A stretch of 24,273 bases of DNA, taken from NCBI GenBank assembly GCA_964636545.1, contig CAZWSR010000011.1:1-24273 (forward strand), written 5' to 3'. Position 1 is the stretch's first letter, and each line of letters begins with the position of its first letter. The DNA is from Candidatus Undinarchaeota archaeon (lineage in GTDB: Archaea > Undinarchaeota > Undinarchaeia > Undinarchaeales > UBA543). The notes under the pieces are model-generated. The model did no database searches and was not told the DNA's origin. It was given only the letters and a program-made list of their open reading frames with translations. Positions 2,481 through 24,273 of the stretch are shown here, one piece after another. The translations under genes were made by a program, and so were the position numbers.

Positions 2481-2509
2481 AGAAGAATTTAAAACAAAAC
2501 GAGGGAGAA

Positions 2510-3655: not shown

Positions 3656-3657
3656 AA

Positions 3658-5093: not shown

Positions 5094-5111
5094 TGAGTGA
5101 GAATTGACATA

Positions 5112-5128
5112 CATAAACGATTTATAAC
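5112..5128 (+). promoter_or_regulatory. Putative archaeal BRE/TATA box for the neuB-1 operon
   Basis: CATAAACGATTTATAAC. The TTTATAA core is at 5121-5127, 34-40 nt before ATG 5161. Confidence 0.55.
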
Positions 5129-5160
5129 GGATTTTTACCTCTTTTATTAGAGAGATAAGA

Positions 5161-8529: not shown

Positions 8530-9176
8530 ATGTATTGATAGTTGCTGCACATGCAGATGATGAAACACTTGGTTGTGGAGGTGCAATTGCAAAGCACACT
8601 CAAGCAGGCGATAAGGTAACTTTGTTGATATTAGGAAAAAGTGGAACTTCACGAGAAGGAGAAGACACTTCAAATGAACTTAGAGAATGTGCAAAAAAAG
8701 CAGCTGAGATTCTTGGAATAAATGATATTATTTTCACAGACCTTCCTGACCAGAAATTTGATACAATCCCACTTGTTGATATTATAAAACCAGTATCAGA
8801 CGCAATAGAAAAATCCGGAGCAGAAATTGTTTACACTCATTATGAAAATGACTTGAACCGCGATCACAAGCTTGCTTTTGAAGCTACTATGATTGCAGCA
8901 AGACCACAAAGTAATGTGAAAAAGATACTCTCATATGAAGTTCCAAGCTCAACAGAATGGGTTTCTTCAGAGAATGTGTTCAAACCGAACCACTTTGTTG
9001 ACATTACAGCCAACTTAGACAAGAAACTGAGTGCAATGGAACAGTATAGTGGAGAATTGCGCGAATTCCCAAATCCACGAAGTTTGGAATATTTGAAGAT
9101 ATTGGCTGGTTATCACGGAGCAACAGTTAACGTTAAAGCTGCTGAAGCATTTATTCTTATACGAGGAATTAAATGA
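8526..9176 (+). CDS. PIG-L/LmbE-family de-N-acetylase
   Basis: AHADDETLGCGG metal-binding motif, THYENDLNRDH, YEVPSSTEW and AEAF. GGTGA RBS upstream. Confidence 0.9.
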   Translation: MNVLIVAAHADDETLGCGGAIAKHTQAGDKVTLLILGKSGTSREGEDTSNELRECAKKAAEILGINDIIFTDLPDQKFDTIPLVDIIKPVSDAIEKSGAEIVYTHYENDLNRDHKLAFEATMIAARPQSNVKKILSYEVPSSTEWVSSENVFKPNHFVDITANLDKKLSAMEQYSGELREFPNPRSLEYLKILAGYHGATVNVKAAEAFILIRGIK

Positions 9177-10267: not shown

Positions 10268-11491
10268 TTAGAAATAATATCTTTTCTCGTCTTTTTCTCT
10301 TGGAGAATCAGTTAATGAATAATTGTGATCTCCAACAATTGGCAATCGGGCTTCTTCAACTCCAGGATCATTAGCATGGTCCCAAACATTATCTGGCATT
10401 TCCCACGCACCTTGTTCATTTTTCTTCCAAGCAATTGGACTTCGCATAGTGTCAACACAAGCTACAAATTCTTCTTCAGTCATGTCAACGAATTTTAAGA
10501 ACATATCAAGATCATCTGGACGAAGAGCATCATATTTCCGAACCATTTCAATACCTTCCTCGCGAGTCATTCGACCAAACCGAATGTCCTTATTAGCGTG
10601 GTCAGTAGCACGACCGTAACCAAATTTCAAGTATTTTAGCCAGTCATGCAAACCATTATCATGCCAGCATTCAACATCCCATTGAGTATTGTAGGTTCTC
10701 TGGAACTCTGCTGTTTCAAAACCATAATCCTTTATCATTTTATCAGTTTGTGGCTTTGAATCCCATTTAATGTAATTCCCCATGAAAACACCCCTGACCC
10801 CAACACTTTCAAGTTCTGCATCAGATGGATATTTTGCCCACCGAAGATCATCAGCAGTTATTCCTTCTTCTTCATCAACAAGGTCTTCTGCATCATAACC
10901 ACGCAATTCCTGCTCTTTTCTGACTTTTCGTGTCATTTCAACCTTATCTTCAAGTGAAAACATGCCACCAAGGTCAAGGAAGCCCTGCTCACCCCAAATA
11001 AGCAAAGGAATCTTGTATTTGACAGCAATTTGAACAGGAAAAGTTGTAAGTCCGGCGTGGCAGTGCCAGCAAGGATCGCCCATTGTTTTTAGTGATTTTC
11101 TAGCAAGGCGAGGTATTAATTTTGGATCAGGAGAGAACCTAATATGGTCGCATCCGAATTTTTGAACCATATTCTCCAAATTTCTTATTCCAGCAGCAGT
11201 GTTCCACTGATGGTTAAATGTTACAAGAAGAGGATTCATTTTGAAAACTTCTTTGATAAGATAAGTTTGATAGTGACTGTCCTTGCCTCCGCTAACAGGT
11301 ATGATACAATCGTAATTTCCATCTTTAGAACGGTACTGTTCTAGAATTTTTCCAAGCTCTTTGAACCGAACATCCCAATCAATTTTCTTTTTTTCCTCTT
11401 CTACGCGGCATGCACTACATATCCCCCGATCATCGAACGTGAGTGGTACAGCTGAAGATTCCGGTAACAAGCATCGTGTACAATACTTCAT
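10268..11491 (-). CDS. wbuX: N-acetyl sugar amidotransferase (WbuX/PseA family), copy 2
   Basis: MKYCTRC...CSAC, SGGKDS, CWHCH, WGE and LKYLKFGYGRATD motifs. ATG 11491 is preferred because it matches the copy 1 N-terminus MKYC. Confidence 0.9.
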   Translation of the reverse strand: MKYCTRCLLPESSAVPLTFDDRGICSACRVEEEKKKIDWDVRFKELGKILEQYRSKDGNYDCIIPVSGGKDSHYQTYLIKEVFKMNPLLVTFNHQWNTAAGIRNLENMVQKFGCDHIRFSPDPKLIPRLARKSLKTMGDPCWHCHAGLTTFPVQIAVKYKIPLLIWGEQGFLDLGGMFSLEDKVEMTRKVRKEQELRGYDAEDLVDEEEGITADDLRWAKYPSDAELESVGVRGVFMGNYIKWDSKPQTDKMIKDYGFETAEFQRTYNTQWDVECWHDNGLHDWLKYLKFGYGRATDHANKDIRFGRMTREEGIEMVRKYDALRPDDLDMFLKFVDMTEEEFVACVDTMRSPIAWKKNEQGAWEMPDNVWDHANDPGVEEARLPIVGDHNYSLTDSPREKDEKRYYF

Positions 11492-11512
11492 GTTTAACAA
11501 CAAAACGCTTGG

Positions 11513-11535
11513 ATTTATAGTTTATATATTTTGTT
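11513..11535 (-). promoter_or_regulatory. Putative TATA box for wbuX-2
   Basis: The minus strand reads ACAAAATATATAAACTATAAAT, ending about 22 nt upstream of ATG 11491. A T6 tract (11554-11559) follows the hisF-2 stop. Confidence 0.5.
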
Positions 11536-11569
11536 TAAAAAGAATCTTTCAATAAAAAAGAGTGGAAAC

Positions 11570-12379
11570 TTAGTTAATTTCAAGCTTTTTCAAATGGCCA
11601 CGTTCAAGATAAGTAGCTTCCGTGCTGATACGAACGTCAATTCCAGCATTTCTCATAGTTGCTTTTGCCTTGATTGTGCTGTGTTCAGTATAATGGAAAA
11701 TATTTGAAGCTGAGACTGCTGAGGCGTGTCCGTCTTTGATTCCCTTTACAAAATCTTCCATACAACCAACCCCACCGCAGGCGATTACTGGGATTGAAAC
11801 AGCATCAGAAACATTTCTGATAAGTTCAATGTCATAGCCCTGTTTTGAACCGTCCATATCAATTGAGGTTAAGAAAATTTCGCCAGCACCTAGTTCTTCA
11901 GCTTTTTTTGCCCATTCAACCGGATCCATGCCTGTTGCTTCCTTTCCGCAGGCAGTTATTACTTCATATCCCTTCTCTGTTCTTTTCACATCAATTGAAA
12001 CAACAATGCACTGGACACCAAACATTTCAGATGCCTTTGTAATAAATTCTGGATTGTGAACTGCAGAAGTATTTATGCAAACTTTGTCAGCACCTGCACG
12101 GAGAACTTCTTTGATATCTTTGGTTGTCTTAATTCCACCACCAATTGTAAGTGGAATAAAACATTTTCGTGAGAAAGCAGAAATTACATCAAGCATTGCT
12201 ATTCGTTCTTCAGGAGTTGCACTCATGTCAAGAAAAACAATTTCATCAACATCCCAATCAATAAAACGCTCAAGCGTAAATCTAGGTCGACCCTGGATTT
12301 TGTAATCATGAAATCCCATACTCTGGACAAGGTAGCCCTGTCGAAGAACCATACACGGAATTAAACGAGTTTTAAGCAT
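11570..12379 (-). CDS. hisF: HisF-like TIM-barrel subunit (WbuZ-type), copy 2
   Basis: TRLIPCM, DEIVFLD, GGGI, GADKV, VVSID, GAGEIF and PVIACGG motifs. Confidence 0.9.
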   Translation of the reverse strand: MLKTRLIPCMVLRQGYLVQSMGFHDYKIQGRPRFTLERFIDWDVDEIVFLDMSATPEERIAMLDVISAFSRKCFIPLTIGGGIKTTKDIKEVLRAGADKVCINTSAVHNPEFITKASEMFGVQCIVVSIDVKRTEKGYEVITACGKEATGMDPVEWAKKAEELGAGEIFLTSIDMDGSKQGYDIELIRNVSDAVSIPVIACGGVGCMEDFVKGIKDGHASAVSASNIFHYTEHSTIKAKATMRNAGIDVRISTEATYLERGHLKKLEIN

Positions 12380-13001
12380 TTTGTTCCTCCACTTTTTCGT
12401 AATTCAAGAAATTTTTAAGAACTTGAAGACCAACTTTGTGGCTTTTTTCAGGATGAAACTGAGTTGCGAATATGTTTCCTTTTTGAACTGCAGCAACTAA
12501 GTCAGAACCGTAATTGCAAGTTGCAGCAATATCCTTTTTATCATTACAGAAAAGTGCATAACTATGTACAAAATAAAAGTTTTTGTCAAATTCAACTTCA
12601 TTGAAATAATCTTTTTTCAGTATTTTAATATCATTCCAACCCATGTGTGGAAGTTTGAGACCATTGGAAACTTCAATTTTCTTTACAACACCATCAATCC
12701 AGCCTAATCCATCAATTTGTTTTCCTTCGAACCCCTCTTTTGCAAGAAGTTGGAGCCCAAGACAGATTCCAAGAAATGGCTTCTTTTTATCAATTACTTC
12801 CTCATTAAGAACATCAATAAGCCCTGCTGCTTTCAGGTTTTTCATTCCATCAGGGAAAGCACCAACTCCAGGAAGAATTATTTTATCTGCTTTTCGAATC
12901 TCCTCGGGTTTGTTAGTTATGCAAAACTCCTGCCCAAGCTCCTCAAGAGCATTTGAGATTGACAGTAAGTTCCCTAATCCATAATCAATAACAGCAATCA
13001 T
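12372..13001 (-). CDS. hisH: HisH-like class I glutamine amidotransferase, copy 2
   Basis: MIAVIDYGLGN, LPGVG, GICLG, PHMGWN, YFVHSY and QFHPEKS motifs. Confidence 0.9.
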   Translation of the reverse strand: MIAVIDYGLGNLLSISNALEELGQEFCITNKPEEIRKADKIILPGVGAFPDGMKNLKAAGLIDVLNEEVIDKKKPFLGICLGLQLLAKEGFEGKQIDGLGWIDGVVKKIEVSNGLKLPHMGWNDIKILKKDYFNEVEFDKNFYFVHSYALFCNDKKDIAATCNYGSDLVAAVQKGNIFATQFHPEKSHKVGLQVLKNFLNYEKVEEQNA

Positions 13002-13020
13002 AACTTGTAAGCATTTTCAA

Positions 13021-13068
13021 CAGTTTATAATATTTATCAAACTACTTTTTTTGCATAAAGCTTATAAC
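13021..13068. promoter_or_regulatory. Divergent pair of putative BRE/TATA promoters
   Basis: Minus strand GATAAATATTATAAAC (TATA 13030-13024, 23-29 nt before ATG 13001). Plus strand CATAAAGCTTATAAC (13054-13068) lies before ATG 13100. Confidence 0.6.
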
Positions 13069-13099
13069 AGTAAAGTCAAACCCTAACAACAAGATTATC

Positions 13100-14059
13100 A
13101 TGAAAGTACTTGTAACCGGTGGCGTCGGATTAATTGGTCAAGAAGCAGTTAGACAGCTTCTGGAAAAAGGCCATGAAGTAAATGTCCTTGATGTTTGGGA
13201 CCCTAGGAATGAGAATACAACCCATTTCAAAGGCTCTGTTCTAAAAAAAGAGGATATTCTAAAAGCAATGGAAGGATGCGATTATGTCATGCACCTTGCT
13301 GCAGTTATGGGAGTTGCAAATACCACAAAAAAGCCACTAGAATGCCTGGATGTCAACATACTTGGAACACGAACTGTACTTGAATGTTGTGTTGAGAAGA
13401 ACATCAAAAAAATAGTTTTCTCGTCTTCTTCTGAAGTTTATGGAGAACCAAAAACAGTCCCAGTTCTAGAATCAAATACACTAAGGCCAAAATCAGAATA
13501 TGGAATAAGTAAAGTTGTTGGAGAAGAATATGTAAAAGCATTTAGTATCGGTCATGGTCTTGATTACTCAATTGTCAGATTTTTCAATGTTTATGGACCA
13601 ATGCAGACAGACAAATTCGTTATTCCAATGATGATGAGAAATACATTTTTTGGGAAGCCAATACAGATTTACGGTGACGGAAGCCAAGTACGGGCCTTCT
13701 GCTATGTTAAAGATGCTGTAAACGGAATGATAACTGCATTATTTGATGAGCGTGCAAATAATAAGATAATGAATATTGGAAATCCAGAAGGAAAAACCAG
13801 CATCAAAGAACTTGCTGAGAAAATTGTTGAAATCACAGGAAATGAAACACAGATTGAGTATGTAGCATTTGGTGATTCAGATAGAAGTGAAAAGAGAGAG
13901 ATATTCAACAGAATTCCAGATATTAGCAAGGCAAAAGATACAATTGAGTATGAACCAAAATACTCACTTGATGATGGTTTGAAAGAGATTTACAATTATT
14001 ACAAAGCAAATCCAGATTGGGTTAAAGCAGATCCAGATTGGGATGATAAAATAGAATAA
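13100..14059 (+). CDS. NAD-dependent nucleotide-sugar epimerase/dehydratase (extended SDR)
   Basis: TGGVGLIG, HLAA, SSSEVYG, YGISK (YxxxK), RFFNVYGP and GDGSQVR motifs. Confidence 0.9.
   Translation: MKVLVTGGVGLIGQEAVRQLLEKGHEVNVLDVWDPRNENTTHFKGSVLKKEDILKAMEGCDYVMHLAAVMGVANTTKKPLECLDVNILGTRTVLECCVEKNIKKIVFSSSSEVYGEPKTVPVLESNTLRPKSEYGISKVVGEEYVKAFSIGHGLDYSIVRFFNVYGPMQTDKFVIPMMMRNTFFGKPIQIYGDGSQVRAFCYVKDAVNGMITALFDERANNKIMNIGNPEGKTSIKELAEKIVEITGNETQIEYVAFGDSDRSEKREIFNRIPDISKAKDTIEYEPKYSLDDGLKEIYNYYKANPDWVKADPDWDDKIE
14003..14042 (+). repeat. 21-bp-period tandem duplication at the 3' end of the epimerase gene
   Basis: AAAGCAAATCCAGATTGGG-TT-AAAGCAGATCCAGATTGGG (18/19 identical), encoding KANPDWV-KADPDWD. 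Confidence 0.8.
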
Positions 14060-14067
14060 GTTGAGCT

Positions 14068-14087
14068 AAAAAAGAATTATTTTTTTT
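14068..14087. terminator. Putative bidirectional oligo-T terminator
   Basis: A6 (14068-14073) and T8 (14080-14087) at the junction of convergent genes give a U-tract after each stop, with no GC hairpin. Confidence 0.4.
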
Positions 14088-15081
14088 CGTAGACATAACT
14101 ATCAAGAGATGGACAGTTTTTGCAAACAGGAATTTCATTTAGTTTGCCTGCAAGATGCATCCTCCTTATATTACTTAGTTTTTCTCCATGCCAGATACTG
14201 TGAATGGATTGGTGGGTGACATCACCAAGAATACAGCCCATGTTCCAGTCATCACAGCACATCATTACTTTTCCGTCATAAGAAATAATGAGGCGTTGCC
14301 AGATTTGGTTGCAAGGTTTTCTTTCTTGTAATTTCAAATTTCCAGAAGAACGATCTACTTCATTTGCATTTGGATCAAGATAAGACATATCAAGGAATGG
14401 ATTAACAATAACTTCATCAATTTTTCCTTCCCAGGTTTTCTTGAATAATTCTGACTCGTGCATATTTTCCTTCATTTCAACAAATTGAATTCTTGTAAGT
14501 GGGAGTTTCTTTTTCATTTCTTTTTTCAAACGAAGAAGTGTTTCAATGTTGTTTACAAGACGCTCATAAATGCCTCCGCGCCTTATTTTCTCATAAGTTT
14601 CCTTAGTTGCGCCATCAACAGAGAAAATTATTCTGTCAAGACCCGCTTCAATTAATCCCCTGGCCTTTTCTTCAGTAAGAAGTTGACCATTAGTATTAAA
14701 CTGAACCTCAACAATTCCTTTTTCTTTAGCATATCGAACCATATCAACAACACGAGGATGTAAAAGCGGTTCGCCACGCCAGTTTAATTTAATTGAACAA
14801 AGCCCGTGTTGAACCCCTTCATCAATAATTTTTTGAAAAAGCTCCCAGGTAATAGATCCAAATGTTTCTTTTGCGAAATTAATTCCACACATTACGCACC
14901 GAAGATTGCAGTTGTTTGTAGTTTCAATATCAATGTGAATAGGAAAATCATACACTTTGTGTTTTTTTGAAGCTAGAAGCCACTTGAGCCGGTATTTTCT
15001 GTATTTGAGATCCAAGCCACGCTCCCAATAACCAAATAATGGCTTAAGTGAAACTCCAATTTCAAAGGAAGATTTAGACAT
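14077..15081 (-). CDS. Radical SAM protein with SPASM/Twitch domain
   Basis: CNLRCVMC (CX3CX2C), GEPLLH, NTNG and FSVDG motifs. The C-terminus has CNQIW...CCDDW...CKNC. Confidence 0.9.
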   Translation of the reverse strand: MSKSSFEIGVSLKPLFGYWERGLDLKYRKYRLKWLLASKKHKVYDFPIHIDIETTNNCNLRCVMCGINFAKETFGSITWELFQKIIDEGVQHGLCSIKLNWRGEPLLHPRVVDMVRYAKEKGIVEVQFNTNGQLLTEEKARGLIEAGLDRIIFSVDGATKETYEKIRRGGIYERLVNNIETLLRLKKEMKKKLPLTRIQFVEMKENMHESELFKKTWEGKIDEVIVNPFLDMSYLDPNANEVDRSSGNLKLQERKPCNQIWQRLIISYDGKVMMCCDDWNMGCILGDVTHQSIHSIWHGEKLSNIRRMHLAGKLNEIPVCKNCPSLDSYVYEKK

Positions 15082-15106
15082 AATTATAATTTTAAAACAA
15101 AGATTA

Positions 15107-15148
15107 GTTTATAACTCTTTTGAAATGAACATCATAAAAGGTATAAAG
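15107..15148. promoter_or_regulatory. Divergent pair of putative BRE/TATA promoters
   Basis: Minus strand CAAAAGAGTTATAAAC (TATA 27-33 nt before ATG 15081). Plus strand CATAAAAGGTATAAAG (TATA 25-31 nt before ATG 15172). Confidence 0.6.
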
Positions 15149-15171
15149 CCGAGTTTTCAAGAGAAAAAAAG

Positions 15172-15684
15172 ATGACAGAAGAAACCGTATTTTCAGTTCA
15201 GGAAAAGGCACTTACTGTAAGTTATGCTGATGAAAATGACAGAGAACTGCTCTGGGAGTGGAGAAATGATCCAGAAACGCGACGTACTGCTTTTGAAACA
15301 GGTGAAATCCATTTTGAACAACATTGTGAGTGGTTTAATTCTAAAATTAATTCAGAAACTACAAAGATTTTCATTATAAAAGATTCAAAACAAACACCAG
15401 TTGGACAGATTCGTTTTGATATTGATGAAAATAAGAATACTGAAATTGATGTTTTTATTGCAAAAAGCGAACGTGGAAAAGGGTATGCTACAGCTAGTTT
15501 GAAAAGCGCATGTGTTTATGGTTTTACAACTCTTGGGATTGAAAAATTCACAGCACACATAAAAACTGAAAATGCTGCTTCAATTGCTCTTTTTACAAAA
15601 GCTGGTTTTACAAACAATGGCGAATTAACATTCAAAAACACTCCAGCAATTAAATTTGTTTTAGAGAAGACGATCAACGAATGA
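15172..15684 (+). CDS. GNAT N-acetyltransferase, PseH-like
   Basis: LLWEWRNDPETR, HCEWF, VGQIRFD, RGKGYA (AcCoA motif A) and NAASIALFTKAGF. Confidence 0.8.
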   Translation: MTEETVFSVQEKALTVSYADENDRELLWEWRNDPETRRTAFETGEIHFEQHCEWFNSKINSETTKIFIIKDSKQTPVGQIRFDIDENKNTEIDVFIAKSERGKGYATASLKSACVYGFTTLGIEKFTAHIKTENAASIALFTKAGFTNNGELTFKNTPAIKFVLEKTINE

Positions 15685-17172
15685 ATTAACAATATTTCTG
15701 ACAAGTGGAATTTTGCTGAACACCATTTTGATTTCTTTTTTTGATAAGACCTTAAGAACTAATAACATTATCCCATAAACTGCCCCGCCAATAGCAATGC
15801 TAATGAAAGTCCAAATATGAGAACTAACGGGTATGAAATAAATCACAAGCCCCATAACTAGGCCGGAGAGTAGGATTTTTGGAATCTTTACAAAAGCATA
15901 ATCAATTTTGCAGTGTCGTCTGAAAATAATATGCATATATGTAACCATAATAAAATAACTTACTGTTGTTGCAACAGCTGCTCCGATTAACTCAAATCTT
16001 GGAATAAGCACCCAATTTAATCCAATATTACTAATTGCAGCAAGGCCATAAGCACCTGCAATGTGCTTGGTCTCCCCAGCAACAAGAAGGCCACTACAAA
16101 AAACACTACTTACAAAATAAAATAATGGGAATAAAAGAAGAGGAATAAGAACTGGAACAGAAGACAAGTATTTTTCTCCTGAAATCAATAAAATAACTGG
16201 CTCTCGGAGAATAAAACCACCAACAAGACAGGGAATTGCAATAAGAAAACCGAATTTAAGAGATGCACTAATAAGCTTAACAGAATCCTTTCCAGTATTC
16301 CGTGCCTCAGCAAAATAAGGCATTATTACAACGCTGGCAGAAGCACTAACTGTTTTAATTGTACCAAGTAGGGAATATGGAAGTGTATAAAGGCCAACTG
16401 CACTTGCACTCATAAAATAATTTATCAAAAAACGATCACTAATTGAAATAAACCAGCCAGCAATAACAACTGGAACAAGAGGAAGGCCAAAGTATAGTGC
16501 TTTTTTTACAACTGGGGAGCTGAAACGCTCATGGAAGAACAGCTTCAAGTCAGAAAATGAACGAATGAAATATATCAAAACAGACAAAACAACTCCAGCA
16601 AGCCAGATAAGAAGAACATGGCTTAACGTGAAGCTCTTGAAAAGGAAGAACAATCCGAAAAGCAATAGCATCCAACCCTTACTGACAAGAAAGTCCATTG
16701 TATTGACAAAATTCATCTGTTTTCTAGCACTAAAGAATTCAAAAAAGAGTTTTGTCATTGAAAGGAAGAAAATTAGCAAAAGACAGATTCCAAATTCAGT
16801 TGAATAGGCAGTCAGGTTTGTGAAATTAAGGAACCAGGCCTTGAATGGTGTGAAATATAGAGAAAGTAGGATAAGTAAAACAACAATTACATCAAAAAAT
16901 ACAATTTTCCAGAATTTTTTTGCTTGTACTTCTTTAGCTTGCCCAGGAAGCCGTGCAAGAATAAAATTTGACATTCCAAAAACAAGTCCAAGTGCAAGTA
17001 AGGACACAAACGCGGAAAGTAAGGAGTAAACACCATAATCTTCAACACTTAGAACACGAGTAAGGAGTGCAAGAAGAGCAGGAGAAATTAGAATAGTAAA
17101 AAGAAGTAAAGAATTTGAGAAAATCACTTGACCTGAAATTCTACTGTAGTTTTTGTCTTGTTGTTCTTCCAT
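15661..17172 (-). CDS. Wzx/PST-family oligosaccharide flippase
   Basis: 503 aa with many TM segments. LTRVLSVEDYG, DRFLI, VGLY and LNWVLIPRFELIGAAVAT motifs. Confidence 0.88.
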   Translation of the reverse strand: MEEQQDKNYSRISGQVIFSNSLLLFTILISPALLALLTRVLSVEDYGVYSLLSAFVSLLALGLVFGMSNFILARLPGQAKEVQAKKFWKIVFFDVIVVLLILLSLYFTPFKAWFLNFTNLTAYSTEFGICLLLIFFLSMTKLFFEFFSARKQMNFVNTMDFLVSKGWMLLLFGLFFLFKSFTLSHVLLIWLAGVVLSVLIYFIRSFSDLKLFFHERFSSPVVKKALYFGLPLVPVVIAGWFISISDRFLINYFMSASAVGLYTLPYSLLGTIKTVSASASVVIMPYFAEARNTGKDSVKLISASLKFGFLIAIPCLVGGFILREPVILLISGEKYLSSVPVLIPLLLFPLFYFVSSVFCSGLLVAGETKHIAGAYGLAAISNIGLNWVLIPRFELIGAAVATTVSYFIMVTYMHIIFRRHCKIDYAFVKIPKILLSGLVMGLVIYFIPVSSHIWTFISIAIGGAVYGIMLLVLKVLSKKEIKMVFSKIPLVRNIVNSFVDRLL

Positions 17173-17202: not shown

Positions 17203-18771
17203 TTAAGAGTTTTGAAACTCGTAAAGGAAGAAGTCTGTTTCATCTTCTCCGTAAATGTCTTTGTAGGTGTTCGAGTATGTGTTAATAAGATTATAATTTG
17301 ACTCAAGGCATTGTTTGATTAGTTTATTAGAGTCTAAATTTGAAGGATTGTTTTGAAGTAAATAGATTTTTTGAGGAGAACCAATTTTTCCAATAAAGTT
17401 GCACATATTGTCACTTGTTATTGGTTTTTCATTTGTAAGAAAATCAGAAAACGTAATGTCTGCCTTGTTTATATCAGTCCCGTCAGGAGTCAAGTAAATT
17501 CCAGCTGGACCTTTGTAAATAAGTTTTAGATTAAGTGAGTACATTGCAGAATTCACAAGAATAACATCTCCAAGATTAGCGTCTATATTCTCTGATAAGG
17601 ATTCAAAATCGTCTTTGTGTAATTGAACAGTGTAATATTCGTAAATTGAAATTGAGTTTAGTGCAAGAACAATTATAATAAAAACAATTGCTAGTTTTTT
17701 GAAATTGATTGATTTGCTGAGTTTAGAAACACCTTTTGCAATAAACAAATAATACAAAGGAGAAACGAACAAGATAAACCGAGCATATGTTTGATATGGT
17801 AAAAGTCCAGTTGCCCAAAGAATTGACAAAGATGTGAGAACCGTTATTGGGAAAATTGCCGTGAAAAAGACCTTTTTCTTGAAAATATCCTTGATGTTTG
17901 CAAGAATTGGAAGTCCAAAAGCAGCAAGCGCGAAGCCAATAAATACTAGGAAACCAAGCCCAGTACTAACTGGATGATAACCAACACTCAAATGGAAAAT
18001 CATCATTGGAATACGGACAAAAAGATTGTTTGAATTTAGTTGGAATAAATTGAACTCTAGCAACGGATCATTGAAATTATATGCAGGATTTGTGACTTCG
18101 GTGGCGTGTACTCTCTGAGCATAAACTATTGGTAAAAGTGGAGCTATAAGCAAAGCAAGAAGGAAACAAGACACAAATAATGTTTTCAGAAGTTTTTTAT
18201 CGTGCCGATGATAGAACATAACATAAACAACTTTTGCAAGCAAAATAAAACCAAAGAAATAATGAATCCAGCAGGCAAGTGCAGAAGCGATTACCCATAA
18301 AACAACTTGCTTAGTTTTTCTATCTTGTAGATAAGATACAAAAAAGTAAATTGCAAGCATAGTAAGGAACGTGAAAACAGCATAACTGCGAATTATTTGA
18401 GCATATTTAATATTTGGTTGAGCAACTGCAAATAAGAATGAGGACAATAACCCAACCCTTTCACTGAATAATCGTTTCCCAAGCAAAAATAGCAGAGGAA
18501 TAACACCTAAACTAGCAACCACAGACAATAAGCGGAATGGAGTAATTGAACCAAATGACGGAATGGCTTTTAGTAAAACATAATAAAGTGGTGGGTGTGC
18601 ATCAGCTTTCGTGGAAGCCCACCATTTTGAAACGGGCCCATCTCTTAGAAAAATTGCAGGACCTTCATCACCGCGGACATTAGGAGTTGACACAAATGAA
18701 AATCGAAAAACAGCACCAAGTAATAGTATTAGAATAAGTATTGTAAGCGTCTTGTTGTTTAGTTTGAACAT
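17203..18771 (-). CDS. GT-C membrane glycosyltransferase (PMT/ArnT-like, GT39/GT83)
   Basis: DE motif after TM1 (RGDEG), HPPLYY, RLLS and RSYA motifs, multiple TM segments and a soluble C-terminal domain. Confidence 0.8.
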   Translation of the reverse strand: MFKLNNKTLTILILILLLGAVFRFSFVSTPNVRGDEGPAIFLRDGPVSKWWASTKADAHPPLYYVLLKAIPSFGSITPFRLLSVVASLGVIPLLFLLGKRLFSERVGLLSSFLFAVAQPNIKYAQIIRSYAVFTFLTMLAIYFFVSYLQDRKTKQVVLWVIASALACWIHYFFGFILLAKVVYVMFYHRHDKKLLKTLFVSCFLLALLIAPLLPIVYAQRVHATEVTNPAYNFNDPLLEFNLFQLNSNNLFVRIPMMIFHLSVGYHPVSTGLGFLVFIGFALAAFGLPILANIKDIFKKKVFFTAIFPITVLTSLSILWATGLLPYQTYARFILFVSPLYYLFIAKGVSKLSKSINFKKLAIVFIIIVLALNSISIYEYYTVQLHKDDFESLSENIDANLGDVILVNSAMYSLNLKLIYKGPAGIYLTPDGTDINKADITFSDFLTNEKPITSDNMCNFIGKIGSPQKIYLLQNNPSNLDSNKLIKQCLESNYNLINTYSNTYKDIYGEDETDFFLYEFQNS

Positions 18772-19734
18772 TTAATCCCTCTTTAAGAGTTCAGGATTTT
18801 CTTTCAAATACTTGACAGTTCTTCGGATTCCGTCTTCAATGCTAACTTCTGGTTTCCAGCCTAAATTCATTATTTTCTTTACATCAAGCTGAACAAACGG
18901 AGCATCACCAATCCAACCCCTTTCACCGCCAGTAAATTTATACTCAACATCACTTAATCCAAGCTCTTCGATTATGATTTTCGCAACATCCTTAACATTC
19001 ATGTATTCAACATTTCCAAGATTAAAGATGTTGACTTTCTCGTCTGCATTTTCAATTGCAAACACCATTGCATTAACGCAATCATTAATATAAAGATATG
19101 ATTTCTTTTGTTCTCCATCGCCAAGAATTTCCAATTCTTTTGGATTTTTATTTAGCTTTTTAACAAAATCAAAAATAACGCCATGGGTGTACCGTTCTCC
19201 AATTAATGAAACAAAACGGAATATCCAAGATTTTATTCCAAAACCTTCACAAAATGCCTGAATCATTGCTTCGCCTGCAAGTTTTGAAGCGCCGTAGAGG
19301 GAAGTTTGAACAGGACAGTAGTTTTCTGGGGTTGGGAACTTGTTTGGCTCGCCGTACATTGCAGATGTTGATGAGAACGCGATTCCTTTAACATCATTTA
19401 AACGAATTGCTTCCAGCACATTCCAAGTGCCAATTGTATTTTGTTCTAAATCAATTCGTGTATTGTTTATGCCACCACGAACATCAGCATTTGCAGATAA
19501 ATGAAAAACGAAATCGTGACCTTGCATTGCGGTTTTAAGTGCCCCCAAATCCATTATGTCGCCTTTAATTAATTTGAATTTAGGATTTTCAGATTGATTT
19601 TTCAGAAAAGCACTCTGACCAGTTTTCATACTGTCATAAACTGTGACTTCACAGCCCATTTCAAGTAATTTGTCAGCAACATTACTACCAACAAATCCTG
19701 CACCACCAGTTATGAATACTTTTTTCATTTTCAT
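18772..19734 (-). CDS. NAD-dependent nucleotide-sugar epimerase (GalE-like extended SDR)
   Basis: TGGAGFVG, SANADVR, YGASK, HGVIFDF and LGDGEQKKSY motifs. Confidence 0.9.
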   Translation of the reverse strand: MKMKKVFITGGAGFVGSNVADKLLEMGCEVTVYDSMKTGQSAFLKNQSENPKFKLIKGDIMDLGALKTAMQGHDFVFHLSANADVRGGINNTRIDLEQNTIGTWNVLEAIRLNDVKGIAFSSTSAMYGEPNKFPTPENYCPVQTSLYGASKLAGEAMIQAFCEGFGIKSWIFRFVSLIGERYTHGVIFDFVKKLNKNPKELEILGDGEQKKSYLYINDCVNAMVFAIENADEKVNIFNLGNVEYMNVKDVAKIIIEELGLSDVEYKFTGGERGWIGDAPFVQLDVKKIMNLGWKPEVSIEDGIRRTVKYLKENPELLKRD

Positions 19735-20453
19735 TTTTTCACCACCGCCAATAGACCAGCACCTTTTGGTAAATTAATATGCTGAACAAGATAACTTTCA
19801 AAGAGCGTATATGTTTTTAGAAGGAAACCAAGAATTATTCCCTTGAATGTTTTTCCTTTTCCTGAAACTTCCCATTCCACTTCCGAGTTCCGTAAGTTCT
19901 TGAAAACACGTAGAGGGAAATATTGAGCAAAATGAATGTAAGAGAATTTCAAAACTTTAAGATCTTTAAAAAGTTTTTGAAGTTGTTTTTTTGAATATCT
20001 TCTGTAATGATGAAGTTCGACATCGCTTTTTGTCCATAATTTTTGATTTGCAGGAACAGTTATTATTGCAACTCCACCTGGTTTCAGAACTCTTTTTGCC
20101 TCTTTCATTGCTTTTGGGTCATTGAGAAGGTGTTCCAGAATATCAGAAAGAACAACAAGATCAAATGTGTTGTCAGGATAGTCGAGAGAATCAGCTGAAC
20201 ATTTTTTTACATTACGAAAACCTGCAGTGTTACAAAGAGACACGGCTTTTTCTGAAAAATCAATACCATGAACCTCTCCATGTTCTGAAAGAACTTTCAG
20301 CAAAGCTCCGCAACCACAACCAACATCCAAAATTTTCATATTTTTATTTGGAGTATATTTTTCAATCATAGAAGAGATTAGTTTTCGCTTTCCGCACCAG
20401 TACCAGGAATATTCCTGATGGATATTCATACGCTCGATGTCTTGGTCTTCCAT
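19731..20453 (-). CDS. Class I SAM-dependent methyltransferase
   Basis: LDVGCGCG, DILEHL, LKPGG, TVPA and HYRRY motifs. Start placed at ATG 20453 because a perfect GGAGGTGA lies about 10 nt upstream. Confidence 0.88.
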   Translation of the reverse strand: MEDQDIERMNIHQEYSWYWCGKRKLISSMIEKYTPNKNMKILDVGCGCGALLKVLSEHGEVHGIDFSEKAVSLCNTAGFRNVKKCSADSLDYPDNTFDLVVLSDILEHLLNDPKAMKEAKRVLKPGGVAIITVPANQKLWTKSDVELHHYRRYSKKQLQKLFKDLKVLKFSYIHFAQYFPLRVFKNLRNSEVEWEVSGKGKTFKGIILGFLLKTYTLFESYLVQHINLPKGAGLLAVVKK

Positions 20454-21178
20454 TGTGGATGCTTCACCTCCCTCCAAACATGTATTAGTTCACGCGCAAC
20501 TGCAAGAATTGTTTTTGGTGAAAGCAAACCGAATTTAATTTCATATAGTGGTTTACCAGCACCACGATTGAAATGATTTACGCCAACAGATTTTATCTTG
20601 TAGCCTTTGCATTTTGCTTTTATCAGCATTTCAGTGGTTACTGTACCATAGATTGAATGTAATGTGATGTCATCAACAACTCGCTTTTTCACTAATCTAA
20701 AAGCGGTATTGACGTCCCAGAGATCCATTCTAAAAAACAATCGTATCAGGAAGTTGTAACCAAATGAAATCATTTTCCTAAGAAATGGATCATTTCGTTT
20801 TAGTTTGTAGCCAGCAATAATATCGTACTCGTCAAGAAAGGGCAGGAACTTCTCAAAATCTTCCAAGTCAAACTGGTTATCTGAGTCAGAATAGAAGATG
20901 TTTTCATATTTGGCCGTATTCAAGCCAATTCTGTACGCCTTACCAACTCCGTGGTCATCTTTTGCCTGCAGAACAAGCCTAACATTTGGATCGTTTTGCG
21001 AATAACTCCTCACGATTTCCGCAGTATTATCAGTAGAGCCCTCATAAAGAACAATCAGAATTTCATAATTATTTGCATTCTTTCTGAGAACTTTTTGCGC
21101 ATCTTCAATAACACGGCGGATGTTTCCTGCCTCATTGTAGGCAGGGAAGAACATTGAGATGTTTGGCTTCAAATCCAT
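20426..21178 (-). CDS. GT2, dolichol/polyprenol-phosphate glycosyltransferase (DPM1/GtrB-like)
   Basis: FPAYNEAGNI, EGSTDNT, GVGKA, SDSDNQF (DxD), DVNTAFRL and HFNR motifs. Confidence 0.82.
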   Translation of the reverse strand: MDLKPNISMFFPAYNEAGNIRRVIEDAQKVLRKNANNYEILIVLYEGSTDNTAEIVRSYSQNDPNVRLVLQAKDDHGVGKAYRIGLNTAKYENIFYSDSDNQFDLEDFEKFLPFLDEYDIIAGYKLKRNDPFLRKMISFGYNFLIRLFFRMDLWDVNTAFRLVKKRVVDDITLHSIYGTVTTEMLIKAKCKGYKIKSVGVNHFNRGAGKPLYEIKFGLLSPKTILAVARELIHVWREVKHPQWKTKTSSV

Positions 21179-21180
21179 GA

Positions 21181-21834
21181 TTATTTGTGGTTTTTCTTGT
21201 AGTCAGCCCAAAAGTCAAGGAATTCTTGAATTGTCTCCTGTGTGCGAGGATGAACATACATTTTGTTCAAGATTTTTGGAGGGATTGTTAAAATATCCGC
21301 TCCTGCACGCATTGCAGACATAACATCATAAACAGAGCGTATGCTTCCGATTATGAGTTTTGCATCAAGATCACAGTCATCAAATAACTCAGCGCATTCT
21401 TTTGTAACATCAAATGCATTGTAACCCATGTCTCCAACTCTTCCAAAGAACAGTGAAACATAAGTTGCACCAGCTTTTGCAGCTAGAACACATTGACTTG
21501 AACTCATACAGCAAGTAACATTTGTTTTAATTCCTTTTTCTTTTAGAATTTTAGTTGCGCAAAGACCGTTTGCATCCATAGGGATTTTAACAACAACATT
21601 GTCACCCCATTTGGAGTAAGTAACAGCTTCCTCGACCATTTGTTTGGTGTCAGTTGTAGTTACTTCAATGCTCACAGGACCGTTTACTAGTTTGAGAATC
21701 TCTTTCATCCTAGTTTCAAAGTCACAGCCCTCTTTTGAGACAATTGCCGGGTTTGTGGTGCATCCATCTACAATGCCCATGTCAAGACCCTTTTGTATTT
21801 CTTCTAAATTTGCAGTATCTATGTATATATCCAT
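21181..21834 (-). CDS. tal: Transaldolase (TalC/MipB type)
   Basis: IDTAN, TTNP, SIEV, VVKIP (Schiff-base Lys), NVT, SLFFGR and GSIR motifs. GAGGAGG RBS upstream. Confidence 0.9.
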   Translation of the reverse strand: MDIYIDTANLEEIQKGLDMGIVDGCTTNPAIVSKEGCDFETRMKEILKLVNGPVSIEVTTTDTKQMVEEAVTYSKWGDNVVVKIPMDANGLCATKILKEKGIKTNVTCCMSSSQCVLAAKAGATYVSLFFGRVGDMGYNAFDVTKECAELFDDCDLDAKLIIGSIRSVYDVMSAMRAGADILTIPPKILNKMYVHPRTQETIQEFLDFWADYKKNHK

Positions 21835-21835
21835 T

Positions 21836-22441
21836 TTATTTCTCCTCCTCTAAGTTTTTAATTAATAGAGCAGCATCATATAAAGTTTTCACTTTGTGAT
21901 TTGGGGTGTTTGGTTGTTCAGCAACCAAGTCATAATGGGATTTAATCATTGGATGTTCAACCTTAATTGTGGTGCAGCCAAGCGAATTTCCAACTTTTAT
22001 GTCCCGCCAGCTATCGCCAATCATATACGAGTTTTCCATTTCAATTCCAAATTTCTCCTTTGCTTTCAGAAACATCCCTTGTGCTGGTTTCCTGCAATCA
22101 CAGATTCTTGTGAATTCAGGAACTTTTCCTTTTCCGGGTTCTGAATGCGGACAGTAGTAAACATCATCAACCTGAGCACCAAGCACTTCAAGATCTTTTT
22201 TCATTTTCTCATGAATTTGCTCAACCAATTCAACTGTTGTTTTTGCTTTTGCAATTGCAGGTTGGTTTGTGACAACGATTATCAGGAATCCAAGTTCATT
22301 GAGGATTTGAATCCCTTCTGCAACTTGTGGAAGCAGTTTGAATTGTTCTGGTTTTAGTGGACTATCAATTATGTTGGTTTCAGGAACGTAAACAGGTTCG
22401 TTGATTGTACTGTCTCTGTCAATGAAAACTGCACGATTCAT
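21836..22441 (-). CDS. gmhB: GmhB-like HAD sugar-bisphosphate phosphatase
   Basis: AVFIDRD, VTNQ, CPH...CDCRKP Zn motif and MIGDSWRD. ATG 22441 overlaps the gmhA stop (ATGA). Confidence 0.85.
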   Translation of the reverse strand: MNRAVFIDRDSTINEPVYVPETNIIDSPLKPEQFKLLPQVAEGIQILNELGFLIIVVTNQPAIAKAKTTVELVEQIHEKMKKDLEVLGAQVDDVYYCPHSEPGKGKVPEFTRICDCRKPAQGMFLKAKEKFGIEMENSYMIGDSWRDIKVGNSLGCTTIKVEHPMIKSHYDLVAEQPNTPNHKVKTLYDAALLIKNLEEEK

Positions 22442-23040
22442 CCTTCGTTTACAATTTTCTCCTTCAAGCAATTTGTAACCAAGTGCTCAACAGCCACATG
22501 TAGTGATTCTGAATGAGGTGTGCTTTCAACTGGAGTGACTATGCAGTGGTCAGCCATTTGTTTCATTGCTCCACCATCAAAACCAGATACACCAATCGCA
22601 ACTCCACCATTATCTTTAACATATTGAAGTCCTTTCAAGAGATTTTGTGACCAAGCACCTGCTTTATCGCTTCCTGAACCACCATGTACGCTGAATGCAA
22701 TTACAACATCTCCAGCATTGAAGAAGTTTTTGAGTTGTTCAACATAAATTTCGCCCCAACCATCATCATTTGTTAGTGCGCTGACAATTGGAATATTATC
22801 AACAAGTGCTAGTGCTTTCATTCGCTTTTTTCCTTCAACAATTGTGCATTTGTTTAGATCGCAAGCCATGTGAGTTGCTGTGCTAGCTGAACCCCCGTTT
22901 CCTATTAGGAAAACCTGATTTCCATTTTTCCAAGCAGTAAATAGTGCATCAACTACGCCTGCAATGTCCTCTGAATTGATTTTGTCAATGACATCTTTCA
23001 TTTCAGAGAGGTAATTTTTAATATACTCTACATTATCCAT
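22438..23040 (-). CDS. gmhA: GmhA-like SIS-domain phosphosugar (sedoheptulose-7-P) isomerase
   Basis: GNGGSASTATH, TNDDG, EQL, GFDGG and ESLH motifs. The start could be GTG 23049 or ATG 23040. Confidence 0.82.
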   Translation of the reverse strand: MDNVEYIKNYLSEMKDVIDKINSEDIAGVVDALFTAWKNGNQVFLIGNGGSASTATHMACDLNKCTIVEGKKRMKALALVDNIPIVSALTNDDGWGEIYVEQLKNFFNAGDVVIAFSVHGGSGSDKAGAWSQNLLKGLQYVKDNGGVAIGVSGFDGGAMKQMADHCIVTPVESTPHSESLHVAVEHLVTNCLKEKIVNEG

Positions 23041-23072
23041 TATTATCACAAAAATGGTCGGGATAAGGGGTT

Positions 23073-24059
23073 TTAAGGGTTATGTATTTTAGTGTCATTC
23101 GCCTTGTAGAGCTCTGAAACTACTTTAAAATTCCCATAACTTTCTTCAATTGAACTCATAACTTCACTGCCATGAGCAATTGCAGTTGAAAATTCCTGCC
23201 ATTCTTTCTTCCAGGAATCATCTTCTTCCCAGCTCCACTGTTCTTGATCAGGAATTCCCATTTCTGGCTTCATTTTGTAGAATGTGAGTGTCTCTTTTCC
23301 ATAGCTTCCGCCTAATCCATCAATTACAAGCAATCCAGTCTTACAATGAATTTCAAAACTGAACAAATTCTTCCACTGAGTACAGCTTGCAGTTAGCCAA
23401 GCAACTTTTCCATTTTCAGTTTTCAAAAGTGCAAAACCATTATCCTCAACAGGCATATTCCAGAAAAAAGTTCCAACATGACCATTAACTTCAGTAAATT
23501 CTCCGCAGAACCATCTTGCTAAGTCAATTAAGTGGGTTCCCTGATCTAACATTTCTCCACCACCAGACTTTTGAGGATCTGCGCGCCATTCTTTGTCATA
23601 TCCAAGGCGTCCACCGTGGCCGTAGCGTCCTCGCACAAACATCACTTCACCAATTTCTCTAGAATCAACAATTTCCCGTGCTTTTTGGAAGGATGGATGA
23701 AATCTGTGATTGTAACCAATCTTGACTTGTACCTCTTTTTCTTTTGCCAAGTTCATTAATTGCTCATATTCAACTAAAGTTCTTGCTCCTGGTTTTTCAA
23801 TTAAGCAATGTTTGTTATTGTGAATAGCGTCAGTTGCGATTTCTGCAAGAAATTGGTTAGTTGTTGCAATTATTACTGCTTCAACTTCAGGATTTTGAGT
23901 AACTTTACGATAATCAGTTGCGAATTTGCAATTGTATTTATCGGCAAGCTCTTTTGCACGCTGTTCACTAACATCTGCAACTATAACAAGTTCGTCTTCT
24001 CCAAGAAAATCTGCTCTTCTGCCACCAATTAAACCACACCCAACTATTCCGACTTTCAT
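23073..24059 (-). CDS. Gfo/Idh/MocA-family oxidoreductase
   Basis: GIVGCGLIG, EKP, GYNHRFHP, WR...SGGG and DQGTHLIDL motifs. Confidence 0.9.
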   Translation of the reverse strand: MKVGIVGCGLIGGRRADFLGEDELVIVADVSEQRAKELADKYNCKFATDYRKVTQNPEVEAVIIATTNQFLAEIATDAIHNNKHCLIEKPGARTLVEYEQLMNLAKEKEVQVKIGYNHRFHPSFQKAREIVDSREIGEVMFVRGRYGHGGRLGYDKEWRADPQKSGGGEMLDQGTHLIDLARWFCGEFTEVNGHVGTFFWNMPVEDNGFALLKTENGKVAWLTASCTQWKNLFSFEIHCKTGLLVIDGLGGSYGKETLTFYKMKPEMGIPDQEQWSWEEDDSWKKEWQEFSTAIAHGSEVMSSIEESYGNFKVVSELYKANDTKIHNP

Positions 24060-24273
24060 TTTTCTAGTTTCTCCAAAAGTAATTCATCGAGTCGCCTTAG
24101 CGAGTACATATCTGATTCTGAAATTTCAGGAGTGAAATCAGTGTAATTATCTTTAATGTGAATAAATTTTCCAGTAATTCCATTTGATTTTTCAGAAGAA
24201 AGATACAAAATCAGTTTTGAAACATCTTCTGGATTAGCCCATTGAGCAGGTGCTTTGTCAACTGTCTCTTCTT
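24056..24273 (-). CDS. C-terminal fragment of a short-chain dehydrogenase/reductase (truncated by the window; absent from the ORF track)
   Basis: Manual translation gives EETVDKAPAQWANPEDVSKLILYLSSEKSNGITGKFIHIKDNY...DMYSLRRLDELLLEKLEK*. PEDV..L..YL.S....ITG is the classical SDR C-terminus. ATGA overlap with the next gene. Confidence 0.75.
   Translation of the reverse strand, partial: EETVDKAPAQWANPEDVSKLILYLSSEKSNGITGKFIHIKDNYTDFTPEISESDMYSLRRLDELLLEKLEK

Follow-up and report, generated by a model that had tools for sequence, protein, structure and literature searches.

A transaldolase-linked gene cassette of an Undinarchaeota archaeon predicted to supply a GDP-activated heptose or octose to the cell surface

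Contig CAZWSR010000011.1 of a Candidatus Undinarchaeota archaeon (assembly GCA_964636545.1), hereafter contig C11 or the window, is 24,273 bases long with a G+C content of about 36% and encodes, from position 17203 to its end, nine genes on the minus strand. The genes probably belong to a route in which a GDP-activated sugar of seven or eight carbons (C7/C8) is made, tailored, loaded on dolichyl phosphate (Dol-P) and attached outside the cell. This reading is built on the content, order and conservation of the genes, on a transaldolase that is a dedicated paralog, separate from the housekeeping enzyme in eight of ten genomes, on an insertion in the phosphate-binding loop of a sugar-phosphate isomerase, and on the GT-C fold modelled for a membrane glycosyltransferase. 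The dedicated transaldolase and the remodelled isomerase loop sharpen the question of whether the sugar is a heptose or an octose without settling it.

Gene run and its conservation

The initial annotation had assigned the nine genes to a short-chain dehydrogenase/reductase (SDR), a Gfo/Idh/MocA oxidoreductase, GmhA, GmhB, a transaldolase, a family 2 glycosyltransferase (GT2), a methyltransferase, an epimerase and a GT-C glycosyltransferase, and matches to Pfam and NCBIfam recovered all nine families in the same places on the minus strand. The window is an entire contig of an 840-kb genome in 39 contigs, and the run continues beyond it. The last 55 bases of C11 are identical to the first 55 bases of contig C2 and have no other copy anywhere in the genome, and joining the contigs keeps the SDR in frame as one unbroken protein of 252 residues. 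The gene order across the junction (nucleotidyltransferase, kinase, SDR, Gfo, SIS-domain isomerase) is found on single contigs in three relatives, L005, L006 and L007, and the join is therefore sound. Positions 17203-24273 are the downstream two-thirds of one long minus-strand run that extends from about base 7828 to base 1 of C2 and then from 24273 to 15661 of the window. On C2 the same strand carries, going upstream, a GHMP kinase, a nucleotidyltransferase, a PF03706 flippase-like protein, two STT3/AglB genes, TruD, PTH2 and a transketolase. The pathway proposed in the annotation called for an HddA/LmbP-type kinase and a nucleotidyltransferase, and both lie directly upstream on the adjoining contig since C2 continues the run. 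Distances between neighbouring genes of the run range from -52 to +88 nt, and the likely ATG starts give several 4-nt overlaps. The transketolase was rejected as a member of the cassette, as it is linked in none of 40 related loci and is separated from the run here by TruD and PTH2. Near-identical copies of the stretch were found in 20 metagenome runs of marine and vent origin, drawn from 16 studies; no RNA dataset was among those 20 runs.

The related loci were obtained in a scan for the SIS protein with one genome per species, and each of the 40 loci was searched by tblastn with 15 proteins of the run. A core of epimerase, nucleotidyltransferase, kinase, SIS isomerase and HAD phosphatase is present, whole or mostly, in the 40 archaeal and bacterial loci, with an epimerase ortholog within the cassette in most of them. 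The core holders include DPANN, Thermoplasmatales, Nitrosopumilus, Lindowbacteria, Ignavibacteria, Dehalococcoidia, candidate phyla radiation bacteria, Flavobacteriia, Desulfobacterales and others, at least eight of the groups being bacterial. DPANN loci retain the SDR and Gfo genes, and L005 and L006 retain the order transaldolase, GT2, epimerase, GT-C and MOP flippase. The synteny on which the annotation had staked its proposal is thus conserved in relatives, both in the recurrence of the core and in the order of the run in L005 and L006, and, with the kinase and nucleotidyltransferase located upstream, its interpretation of a C7/C8 surface sugar is supported. The closest relatives of the SIS protein are from the archaeon UBA543 (89% identity) and an Undinarchaeota metagenome-assembled genome (84%). 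Together with AglB and PTH2, these relatives assign the organism to DPANN. The SIS gene is present in 7 of the 17 species genomes of the phylum in the collection and in both genomes of the same genus (83-89% identity), indicating that the sugar island is accessory and patchy within the phylum.

The transaldolase paralog and the isomerase phosphate loop

The transaldolase gene (21181-21834, minus strand) encodes a short-type enzyme of the TalC/FSA subfamily with 217 residues that belongs to a cassette-linked clade of paralogs. The protein matched PF00923 with 164.7 bits and fell narrowly under the cut-off of TIGR00875 (227.4 against 245.95 bits), and the best match in the PDB was the Thermotoga maritima transaldolase 1VPX (201 bits, full-length alignment). 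The Schiff-base Lys, the catalytic Asp, Glu and Thr, and a Phe at the Tal/FSA switch position are all aligned. Identity as a fructose-6-phosphate aldolase was rejected because this position, which is Phe in transaldolases and Tyr in the aldolases, is Phe here.

In order to determine its relation to housekeeping transaldolases, the TAL_FSA family was searched in ten genomes with a transaldolase in the cassette. Two TAL_FSA genes were present in eight of the ten, and in all eight the cassette copy was the weaker match (126-172 bits over profile positions 1 to about 250, against 197-280 bits). The non-cassette copy adjoins a transketolase gene in three genomes. The cassette-type transaldolase stands alone in this genome, in UBA543 and in an Amesbacteria genome. 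A maximum-likelihood tree of 21 sequences, 14 from cassettes and 7 housekeeping, placed 13 of the 14 cassette transaldolases in one group apart from the 7 housekeeping copies (ultrafast bootstrap 88, approximate likelihood-ratio test 99, branch length 0.59). The cassette enzymes keep the catalytic residues, and the changes specific to the group adjoin active-site motifs. Transketolase alone yields sedoheptulose-7-phosphate, with no transaldolase needed. Since a housekeeping transaldolase is present in eight of the ten genomes and a Transketolase_N family gene in all ten, sedoheptulose-7-phosphate is available without a second transaldolase.

The SIS-domain protein (22438-23049, minus strand) is a predicted ketose-phosphate isomerase resembling GmhA and LmbN, with a 9-residue insertion in the phosphate-binding loop. 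It passed the cut-off of PF13580 SIS_2 (48.7 bits, cut-off 27), and all 15 of its PDB matches were GmhA or DiaA, the best being 1TK9 with 72 bits. The structure model in the ESM Atlas has a predicted template-modelling score (pTM) of 0.92 and its nearest clusters are all SIS_2; its own cluster of 603 members is labelled merely "SIS domain-containing protein". The protein was aligned with 39 SIS proteins of the related loci and with a second GmhA encoded on contig C8 of the same genome. The insertion is present in the window protein and 20 related loci and missing from the other 19 and from the C8 GmhA. In GmhA the loop Ser-Thr-Ser-x-x-Ser binds the C7 phosphate of sedoheptulose-7-phosphate (Ser121, Thr122, Ser123 and Ser126 of MtbGmhA; PMC7705670). 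The corresponding loop of the window protein departs from this pattern and reads Ser-Val-His-Gly-Gly, the 9 inserted residues and Ser. The catalytic pair, which acts at C1/C2 in GmhA, shows the conservative changes Glu to Asp and Gln to Glu, which are common to the clades with and without the insertion, while both His residues and the GNGGS motif are retained. The annotation as GmhA is therefore upheld for the SIS/GmhA-like family and not for GmhA proper, in view of the remodelled phosphate loop and a score of 81 bits where 209 are required.

The insertion clade comprises 21 loci, namely the 20 that were aligned and a fragment (L031), too short to align, that was placed by similarity (68% identity over residues 109-199). 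A transaldolase gene lies beside the cassette in 15 of the 21, and in 5 the contig is cut on that side; one locus with full flanks (L018) has no transaldolase. In the 19 loci that lack the insertion, no cassette is flanked by a transaldolase gene. Among uncut loci the linkage is 15 of 16 against 0 of 19 (Fisher p=5e-9, uncorrected for relatedness), a p value that overstates the case because the loci are related. An Atlas cluster of 58 proteins, most commonly from Dictyoglomota, joins a similar SIS domain and a HAD phosphatase domain in one protein (TM 0.91 for the SIS portion); as a lead only, this gene fusion links the isomerase and phosphatase steps.

Sugar activation, tailoring and the lipid-carrier branch

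The kinase of the cassette contains the GHMP kinase domains PF00288 and PF08544, as revealed by searching the C2 proteins against Pfam. Its four best PDB matches (E values 1e-45 to 2e-37), among them 3K85 (160 bits), 4N3O and 4USK, are heptose kinases acting on D-glycero-D-manno-heptose phosphate, and the top NCBIfam model was HddA. The HAD-IIIA phosphatase gene (21836-22471, minus strand; probable start ATG at 22441, overlapping the SIS stop by 4 nt) encodes a putative sugar-bisphosphate phosphatase resembling GmhB and LmbK. The protein passed the cut-offs of TIGR01662 (95.8 bits, cut-off 44.6) and TIGR01656 (105.5 bits, cut-off 84.15) and matched NF006506 below its cut-off; the best PDB match was Escherichia coli GmhB, 2GMW (94 bits), and no other GmhB-type gene was found in the genome. 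The nucleotidyltransferase matched PF00483 with 89 bits. Its PDB matches include mannose-1-phosphate guanylyltransferases and, among the top six, the 6-deoxy-manno-heptose pathway protein 5XHW/6JQ8, which we take to be HddC of Yersinia pseudotuberculosis.

The epimerase gene (18772-19734, minus strand) encodes an extended SDR of 320 residues (PF01370, 163 bits), a predicted nucleoside diphosphate (NDP)-sugar 4-epimerase. The best PDB matches, all spanning the full length of the protein, were 3EHE of Archaeoglobus fulgidus (307 bits), 8RDG of Pyrococcus horikoshii (275 bits), and 3ICP (224 bits) and 3AW9 (211 bits) of Pyrobaculum calidifontis. Of these, 3EHE, 8RDG and 3AW9 are assigned in excerpts of PMC12171764 to an archaeal subgroup of promiscuous GDP-sugar 4-epimerases. 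By sequence the window protein falls in this subgroup, whose members are its nearest relatives, and it is mainly for this reason that GDP is suggested as the nucleotide. A role of the extended SDR as a 4,6-dehydratase was rejected, since 4-epimerases were the strongest matches by far.

Three further genes probably tailor the sugar. The Gfo/Idh/MocA protein (23073-24059, minus strand; 328 residues) is a predicted NAD-dependent sugar dehydrogenase matching PF22725 (108.9 bits) and PF01408 (77.4 bits). Its best PDB matches were 6A3F, deposited as a "putative dehydrogenase", and DgpA (7XR9), with the glucuronide-3-dehydrogenase 8TDI lower. Both 6A3F and DgpA presumably oxidize C3 of the sugar, in agreement with the top NCBIfam matches, which include levoglucosan dehydrogenase and UDP-GlcNAc 3-dehydrogenase. 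The window ends within the adjacent classical SDR, encoding the C-terminal 71 of its 252 residues (24056-24273, frame to 24271, minus strand), the remainder lying on C2 bases 56-596; the 198 residues encoded on C2, the part scanned, matched PF00106 with 160 bits. The Gfo gene is kept beside the SDR gene in DPANN relatives, and the two enzymes could oxidize and then re-reduce one ring carbon. The third gene (19731-20477, minus strand) encodes a class I methyltransferase dependent on S-adenosylmethionine (PF08241, 80.5 bits) with a probable start at the ATG at 20453, after an AGGGAGGTGA stretch; a methyltransferase gene also lies between the epimerase and GT-C genes in L005.

Related cassettes carry other modifying genes. 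In L005, from UBA543, the nucleotidyltransferase and a B12-binding radical SAM domain form one fused protein (4794-7109, 771 residues), a hint of C-methylation or of some other radical reaction on the sugar. A gene of the UDP-glucose/GDP-mannose dehydrogenase family lies inside or beside the cassette at L016:5122-6423, L007:6794-8098 and L043:10714-12039, and these lineages may make a uronic acid of the higher sugar. The cassette of L015 includes a DegT aminotransferase, a hexapeptide acetyltransferase and a Gfo gene.

Other genes of the run suggest a lipid-carrier branch. The GT2 protein (20426-21178, minus strand; 250 residues; PF00535, 75.6 bits) is a candidate dolichyl-phosphate sugar synthase whose top NCBIfam match was a haloarchaeal Dol-P hexose transferase. 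The PDB matches were weak, the best being chondroitin synthase (52.4 bits), followed by ArnC (42.5) and the Pyrococcus furiosus dolichyl-phosphate mannose synthase DPMS (38.7), the latter two covering residues 6-212. The gene sits between transaldolase and epimerase in L005 and L006 as it does here, with 58-75% identity. The GT-C gene (17203-18771, minus strand), 0 nt from the epimerase gene, encodes a protein of 522 residues with about 9-10 membrane helices and a C-terminal soluble domain that matched PF13231 PMT_2 (40.7 bits, cut-off 26.1). A sequence search of the PDB gave no match for it. The AlphaFold model (mean predicted local distance difference 74.7, pTM 0.81) gave 28 Foldseek matches at E<=0.001, of which those viewed were exclusively GT-C enzymes (STT3, ArnT, ALG9, ALG12, PglB, AglB, Pmt4 and DPY19). 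In the model the GT-C fold is thus confirmed. All 14 aligned sequences share the acidic motif D35-E36 of the first outer loop, and only 13 homologs, all with PMT_2, were found in a large protein collection.

The run ends 30 nt after the GT-C gene with a predicted MOP/Wzx-type flippase (15661-17172, minus strand; 503 residues; PF13440, 70.2 bits; PF01943, 63 bits) that has about 12 or more hydrophobic segments and follows the GT-C gene in L005 too. At the other end, upstream of the PF03706 flippase-like gene and the cassette, two tandem STT3/AglB paralogs of 739 and 724 residues are encoded (C2, L003:3392-7828), which places two genes of flippase type and two AglB genes on the same strand as the cassette. 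Two better ArnC/PpgS-like GT2 genes are found elsewhere in the genome, as is a second GT-C gene on contig C8, and ordinary Dol-P sugars therefore probably have enzymes of their own. The C8 lipid-carrier set (L053:350-7412) comprises an HldD/LegB-like SDR, a GT-C protein of 549 residues, a TIGR00374 flippase-like protein, an ArnC-like GT2 (218 bits), GlmM, a PpgS/AglJ-like GT2 and then an MraY-like protein.

Contig C8 also carries a second heptose set, of the ADP-heptose type (L004:3407-9223), in which a more canonical GmhA (184.9 bits to TIGR00441), an RfaE kinase domain, an RfaE adenylyltransferase domain that passes its cut-off and a lipopolysaccharide-type GT9 heptosyltransferase are contiguous. 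No GmhB is encoded in this set, the only GmhB-type gene of the genome being the window copy. The set adjoins the phosphonate-synthesis genes PEP mutase and phosphonopyruvate decarboxylase, and a FemX-like peptidyl/aminoacyl transferase (51 bits; L004:9272-10297), unusual for an archaeon, adjoins the C8 GmhA.

The remainder of the window (1-15684) looks like a nonulosonic-acid island of the legionaminic or pseudaminic type. It encodes two NeuB paralogs (5161-6180 and 9173-10267), a cytidylyltransferase (6177-6917), two HisH/HisF-like amidotransferase-cyclase pairs (3640-5093 on the plus strand and 11570-13001 on the minus strand), a formyltransferase (7600-8529), a PIG-L deacetylase (8526-9176), a LegB-like dehydratase (13100-14059), a radical SAM/SPASM protein (14077-15081) and a PseH-like GNAT (15172-15684). 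Two open reading frames inside the island, 2510-3655 (381 residues) and 10268-11503 (411 residues), had no Pfam match at E<=1e-5.

Proposed route, competing explanations and known systems

In the proposed route a self-contained cassette of six enzymes would build a GDP-activated higher-carbon sugar from central sugar phosphates; all its substrates and products, the loading on Dol-P, the acceptor and the identity of the sugar are predictions from sequence. The transaldolase would form a ketose phosphate that the SIS isomerase converts to an aldose phosphate. The HddA-like GHMP kinase would then phosphorylate C1, the GmhB-like HAD phosphatase would strip the terminal phosphate, the nucleotidyltransferase would form the NDP-sugar, probably a GDP-sugar, and the GDP-sugar 4-epimerase would invert C4. 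The Gfo/Idh/MocA protein and the classical SDR may oxidize and re-reduce a ring carbon, probably C3, and the methyltransferase may O-methylate the sugar. The GT2, free of membrane helices, would move the sugar to dolichyl phosphate, and either the PF03706 protein or the MOP protein would turn the lipid-linked sugar outward. Finally, the GT-C enzyme would transfer the sugar to a glycan or glycoprotein on the surface; the simplest acceptor would be an N-glycan put in place by the two AglB enzymes encoded nearby.

Several results weigh against this route. None of the enzymes passes a curated equivalog cut-off, the scores being 81.2 bits to TIGR00441 (GmhA, cut-off 209.45) for the SIS protein, 168.3 to NF049969 (HddA, 600) for the kinase, 135.2 to NF006506 (GmhB, 178) for the phosphatase, 106.3 to the HddC model (300) for the nucleotidyltransferase and, far below the Dol-P hexose transferase cut-off of 375, 57.9 for the GT2; the assignment of substrates is accordingly an extrapolation from remote homologs. 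The nucleotidyltransferase gives better scores with MurU (136.8 bits) and archaeal GlmU (125.5 bits) than with HddC. The transaldolase of the cassette is the only TAL_FSA gene found in this genome, which is estimated to be 83% complete and has RpiA, Rpe and transketolase elsewhere, and as the sole copy it may also serve central metabolism. Support for the cassette transaldolase clade is moderate, with a single origin needed in only 36% of bootstrap trees, and the Lindowbacteria cassette transaldolase (L017) is a long-branch outlier outside the clade. The GT2 has no hydrophobic or membrane segment and is similar to Leloir GT2 enzymes such as chondroitin synthase, and only the two closest relatives retain the pairing of GT2 and GT-C, the Micrarchaeota cassette being followed by a GT4 gene instead.

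The ketose phosphate that enters the cassette could be sedoheptulose-7-phosphate, giving a heptose, or octulose-8-phosphate, giving an octose as made by LmbR and LmbN, each put at somewhat less than an even chance; some other compound is improbable. For the octose it is tentatively proposed that the transaldolase joins the C3 unit of fructose-6-phosphate to ribose-5-phosphate and that the lengthened SIS loop accepts the resulting octulose-8-phosphate. Kinase, phosphatase and nucleotidyltransferase would finish GDP-octose for surface glycans, here by way of dolichyl phosphate and GT-C, and gene transfer would have carried the pathway among DPANN, Thermoplasmatales and several bacterial phyla. 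The octose is favoured by the transaldolase paralog riding with the cassette in genomes that already make sedoheptulose-7-phosphate, by the remodelling of the isomerase phosphate loop exactly where substrate length matters, by a gene set matching the lincosamide octose genes in seven families, and by the more canonical GmhA elsewhere in the genome. In the competing account, which concerns the entry step only and is credible but short of probable, the sugar is a plain heptose, the transaldolase only feeds or balances sedoheptulose-7-phosphate or is a housekeeping enzyme, and the loop insertion is a neutral marker of the clade. Prior knowledge and the nearest solved relatives point to a heptose. 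Heptoses are common in prokaryotic glycans, and we know of no neutral aldo-octose in a prokaryotic glycan. For isomerase, kinase and phosphatase, the closest proteins of known structure are enzymes of heptose pathways, and the top six matches of the nucleotidyltransferase include a heptose nucleotidyltransferase, although these relatives cannot discriminate between heptose and octose because the searched libraries were without Lmb enzymes. Also in keeping with a heptose, the cassette-type transaldolase that stands alone in this genome and two others probably still runs the standard reaction, and the Glu to Asp and Gln to Glu substitutions are common to the SIS clade without transaldolase. Against it, the housekeeping transaldolase in eight of ten genomes and the Transketolase_N gene in all ten put sedoheptulose-7-phosphate on hand, C8 already pairs its GmhA with an RfaE-type kinase and adenylyltransferase, and the insertion lies exactly in the loop that binds the C7 phosphate and goes together with a linked transaldolase (in 15 of 16 uncut loci, against none of the 19 without it). 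We know of no characterized heptose cluster that carries a transaldolase, and none was found in the literature searched for one.

The later steps have their own alternatives. It is considered unlikely that GT2 and GT-C do not act on the cassette sugar through a lipid monophosphate, the GT2 being instead a Leloir enzyme that adds the GDP-sugar or another sugar to a cytoplasmic lipid-linked oligosaccharide and the GT-C using an ordinary Dol-P-hexose or another acceptor. Such an arrangement is consistent with the absence of membrane helices from the GT2, its best PDB match to a chondroitin synthase domain, its score far under the Dol-P hexose transferase cut-off, the GT4 paired with the same cassette in Micrarchaeota, and the other ArnC/PpgS-like GT2 genes and second GT-C gene in the genome. 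The location of the GT2 gene inside the sugar operon, with the GT-C gene 0 nt after the epimerase gene and the order kept in L005 and L006, argues for the Dol-P route, as do the two flippase-type genes in the run and the top NCBIfam, ArnC and DPMS matches of the GT2 (residues 6-212), which are polyprenyl-phosphate transferases. Adjacency of the genes without a shared function, either with the transaldolase as a central-metabolism gene in a glycosylation island or with the cassette making a soluble metabolite, would agree with the sole transaldolase of the genome and with a transketolase 9 kb upstream on the same strand. It is very improbable given that the transaldolase is linked to the cassette as a separate paralog in 15 loci of archaea and bacteria, that transketolase is linked in 0 of the 40 related loci, and that the neighbours are GT2, GT-C, flippase and AglB genes.

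The cassette was not described in the part of the literature retrieved on heptose in archaea, on octose and transaldolase, and on glycosylation in Undinarchaeota, nor was an archaeal heptose- or octose-containing glycan found there. The parts are of known kinds, and it is the combination of a transaldolase-linked cassette and a marked isomerase clade, in an archaeon and feeding Dol-P and GT-C, that is undescribed in these sources. The surface chemistry of DPANN archaea is scarcely known, and the locus offers a complete pathway testable in vitro from a lineage not yet grown alone. It also defines a widespread, unnamed isomerase clade that is marked by the 9-residue insertion and travels with its own transaldolase.

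The heptose enzymes of Burkholderia (WcbL), Campylobacter and Yersinia belong to the same four families as those of the cassette and include their nearest structures (1TK9, 3K85/4USK, 2GMW and 5XHW). The cassette differs in its dedicated transaldolase paralog, in passing no equivalog cut-off, and in an isomerase whose C7-phosphate loop has Val for Thr, His for Ser and 9 extra residues and whose catalytic pair has Asp for Glu and Glu for Gln. The archaeal GDP-sugar 4-epimerases PhGal4E_1 (8RDG), 3EHE and 3AW9 are relatives of the epimerase, but its gene here lies in a higher-sugar cassette, which suggests a native substrate for the subgroup; the locus may give these promiscuous enzymes a native context. 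With the ArnC/ArnT system for undecaprenyl-phosphate Ara4FN the locus has in common a GT2 and GT-C pair encoded with enzymes that make and tailor an NDP-sugar, and ArnT (5F15) was among the best Foldseek matches of the GT-C protein (TMq 0.54). That system, however, uses a bacterial carrier and lipid A as acceptor, and its ArnC has membrane helices, whereas the GT2 here has none.

The initial annotation knew of no characterized archaeal example of the route, which does not hold for the lipid-carrier branch. As reported in excerpts of PMC3871713, AglD (GT2), AglR (flippase) and AglS (GT-C) of Haloferax volcanii pass a single mannose via Dol-P to an Asn-linked glycan, with AglB encoded nearby. 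The architecture of GT2, MOP-type flippase, GT-C and AglB is alike in the two, as compared by kind of gene; the sugar in that account is mannose from ordinary GDP-mannose, and the PF03706 flippase-like protein is additional here.

The closest parallel in gene families is the GDP-octose pathway of Streptomyces lincosamides, which in the portion of PMC4351081 consulted comprises LmbR transaldolase, LmbN isomerase, LmbP kinase, LmbK phosphatase, LmbO guanylyltransferase, LmbM epimerase and the LmbL/LmbZ oxidoreductases. The family-for-family match put forward in the annotation agrees with the gene table there for transaldolase, isomerase, kinase, phosphatase, guanylyltransferase, epimerase and oxidoreductase. 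As compared by family only, seven families are common to the two, including a transaldolase, unusual in such clusters and likewise a copy dedicated to the pathway. The run here lacks an LmbS-type aminotransferase, has one Gfo gene only, and adds the classical SDR, methyltransferase, GT2, GT-C, flippases and AglB. If the product is GDP-octose, this would be the first route to an eight-carbon aldose outside the lincosamide antibiotics, and the lincomycin sugar pathway would be an offshoot of a much older and broader surface-glycan pathway. The host here is an archaeon, and the product would go to a surface glycan and not to an antibiotic.

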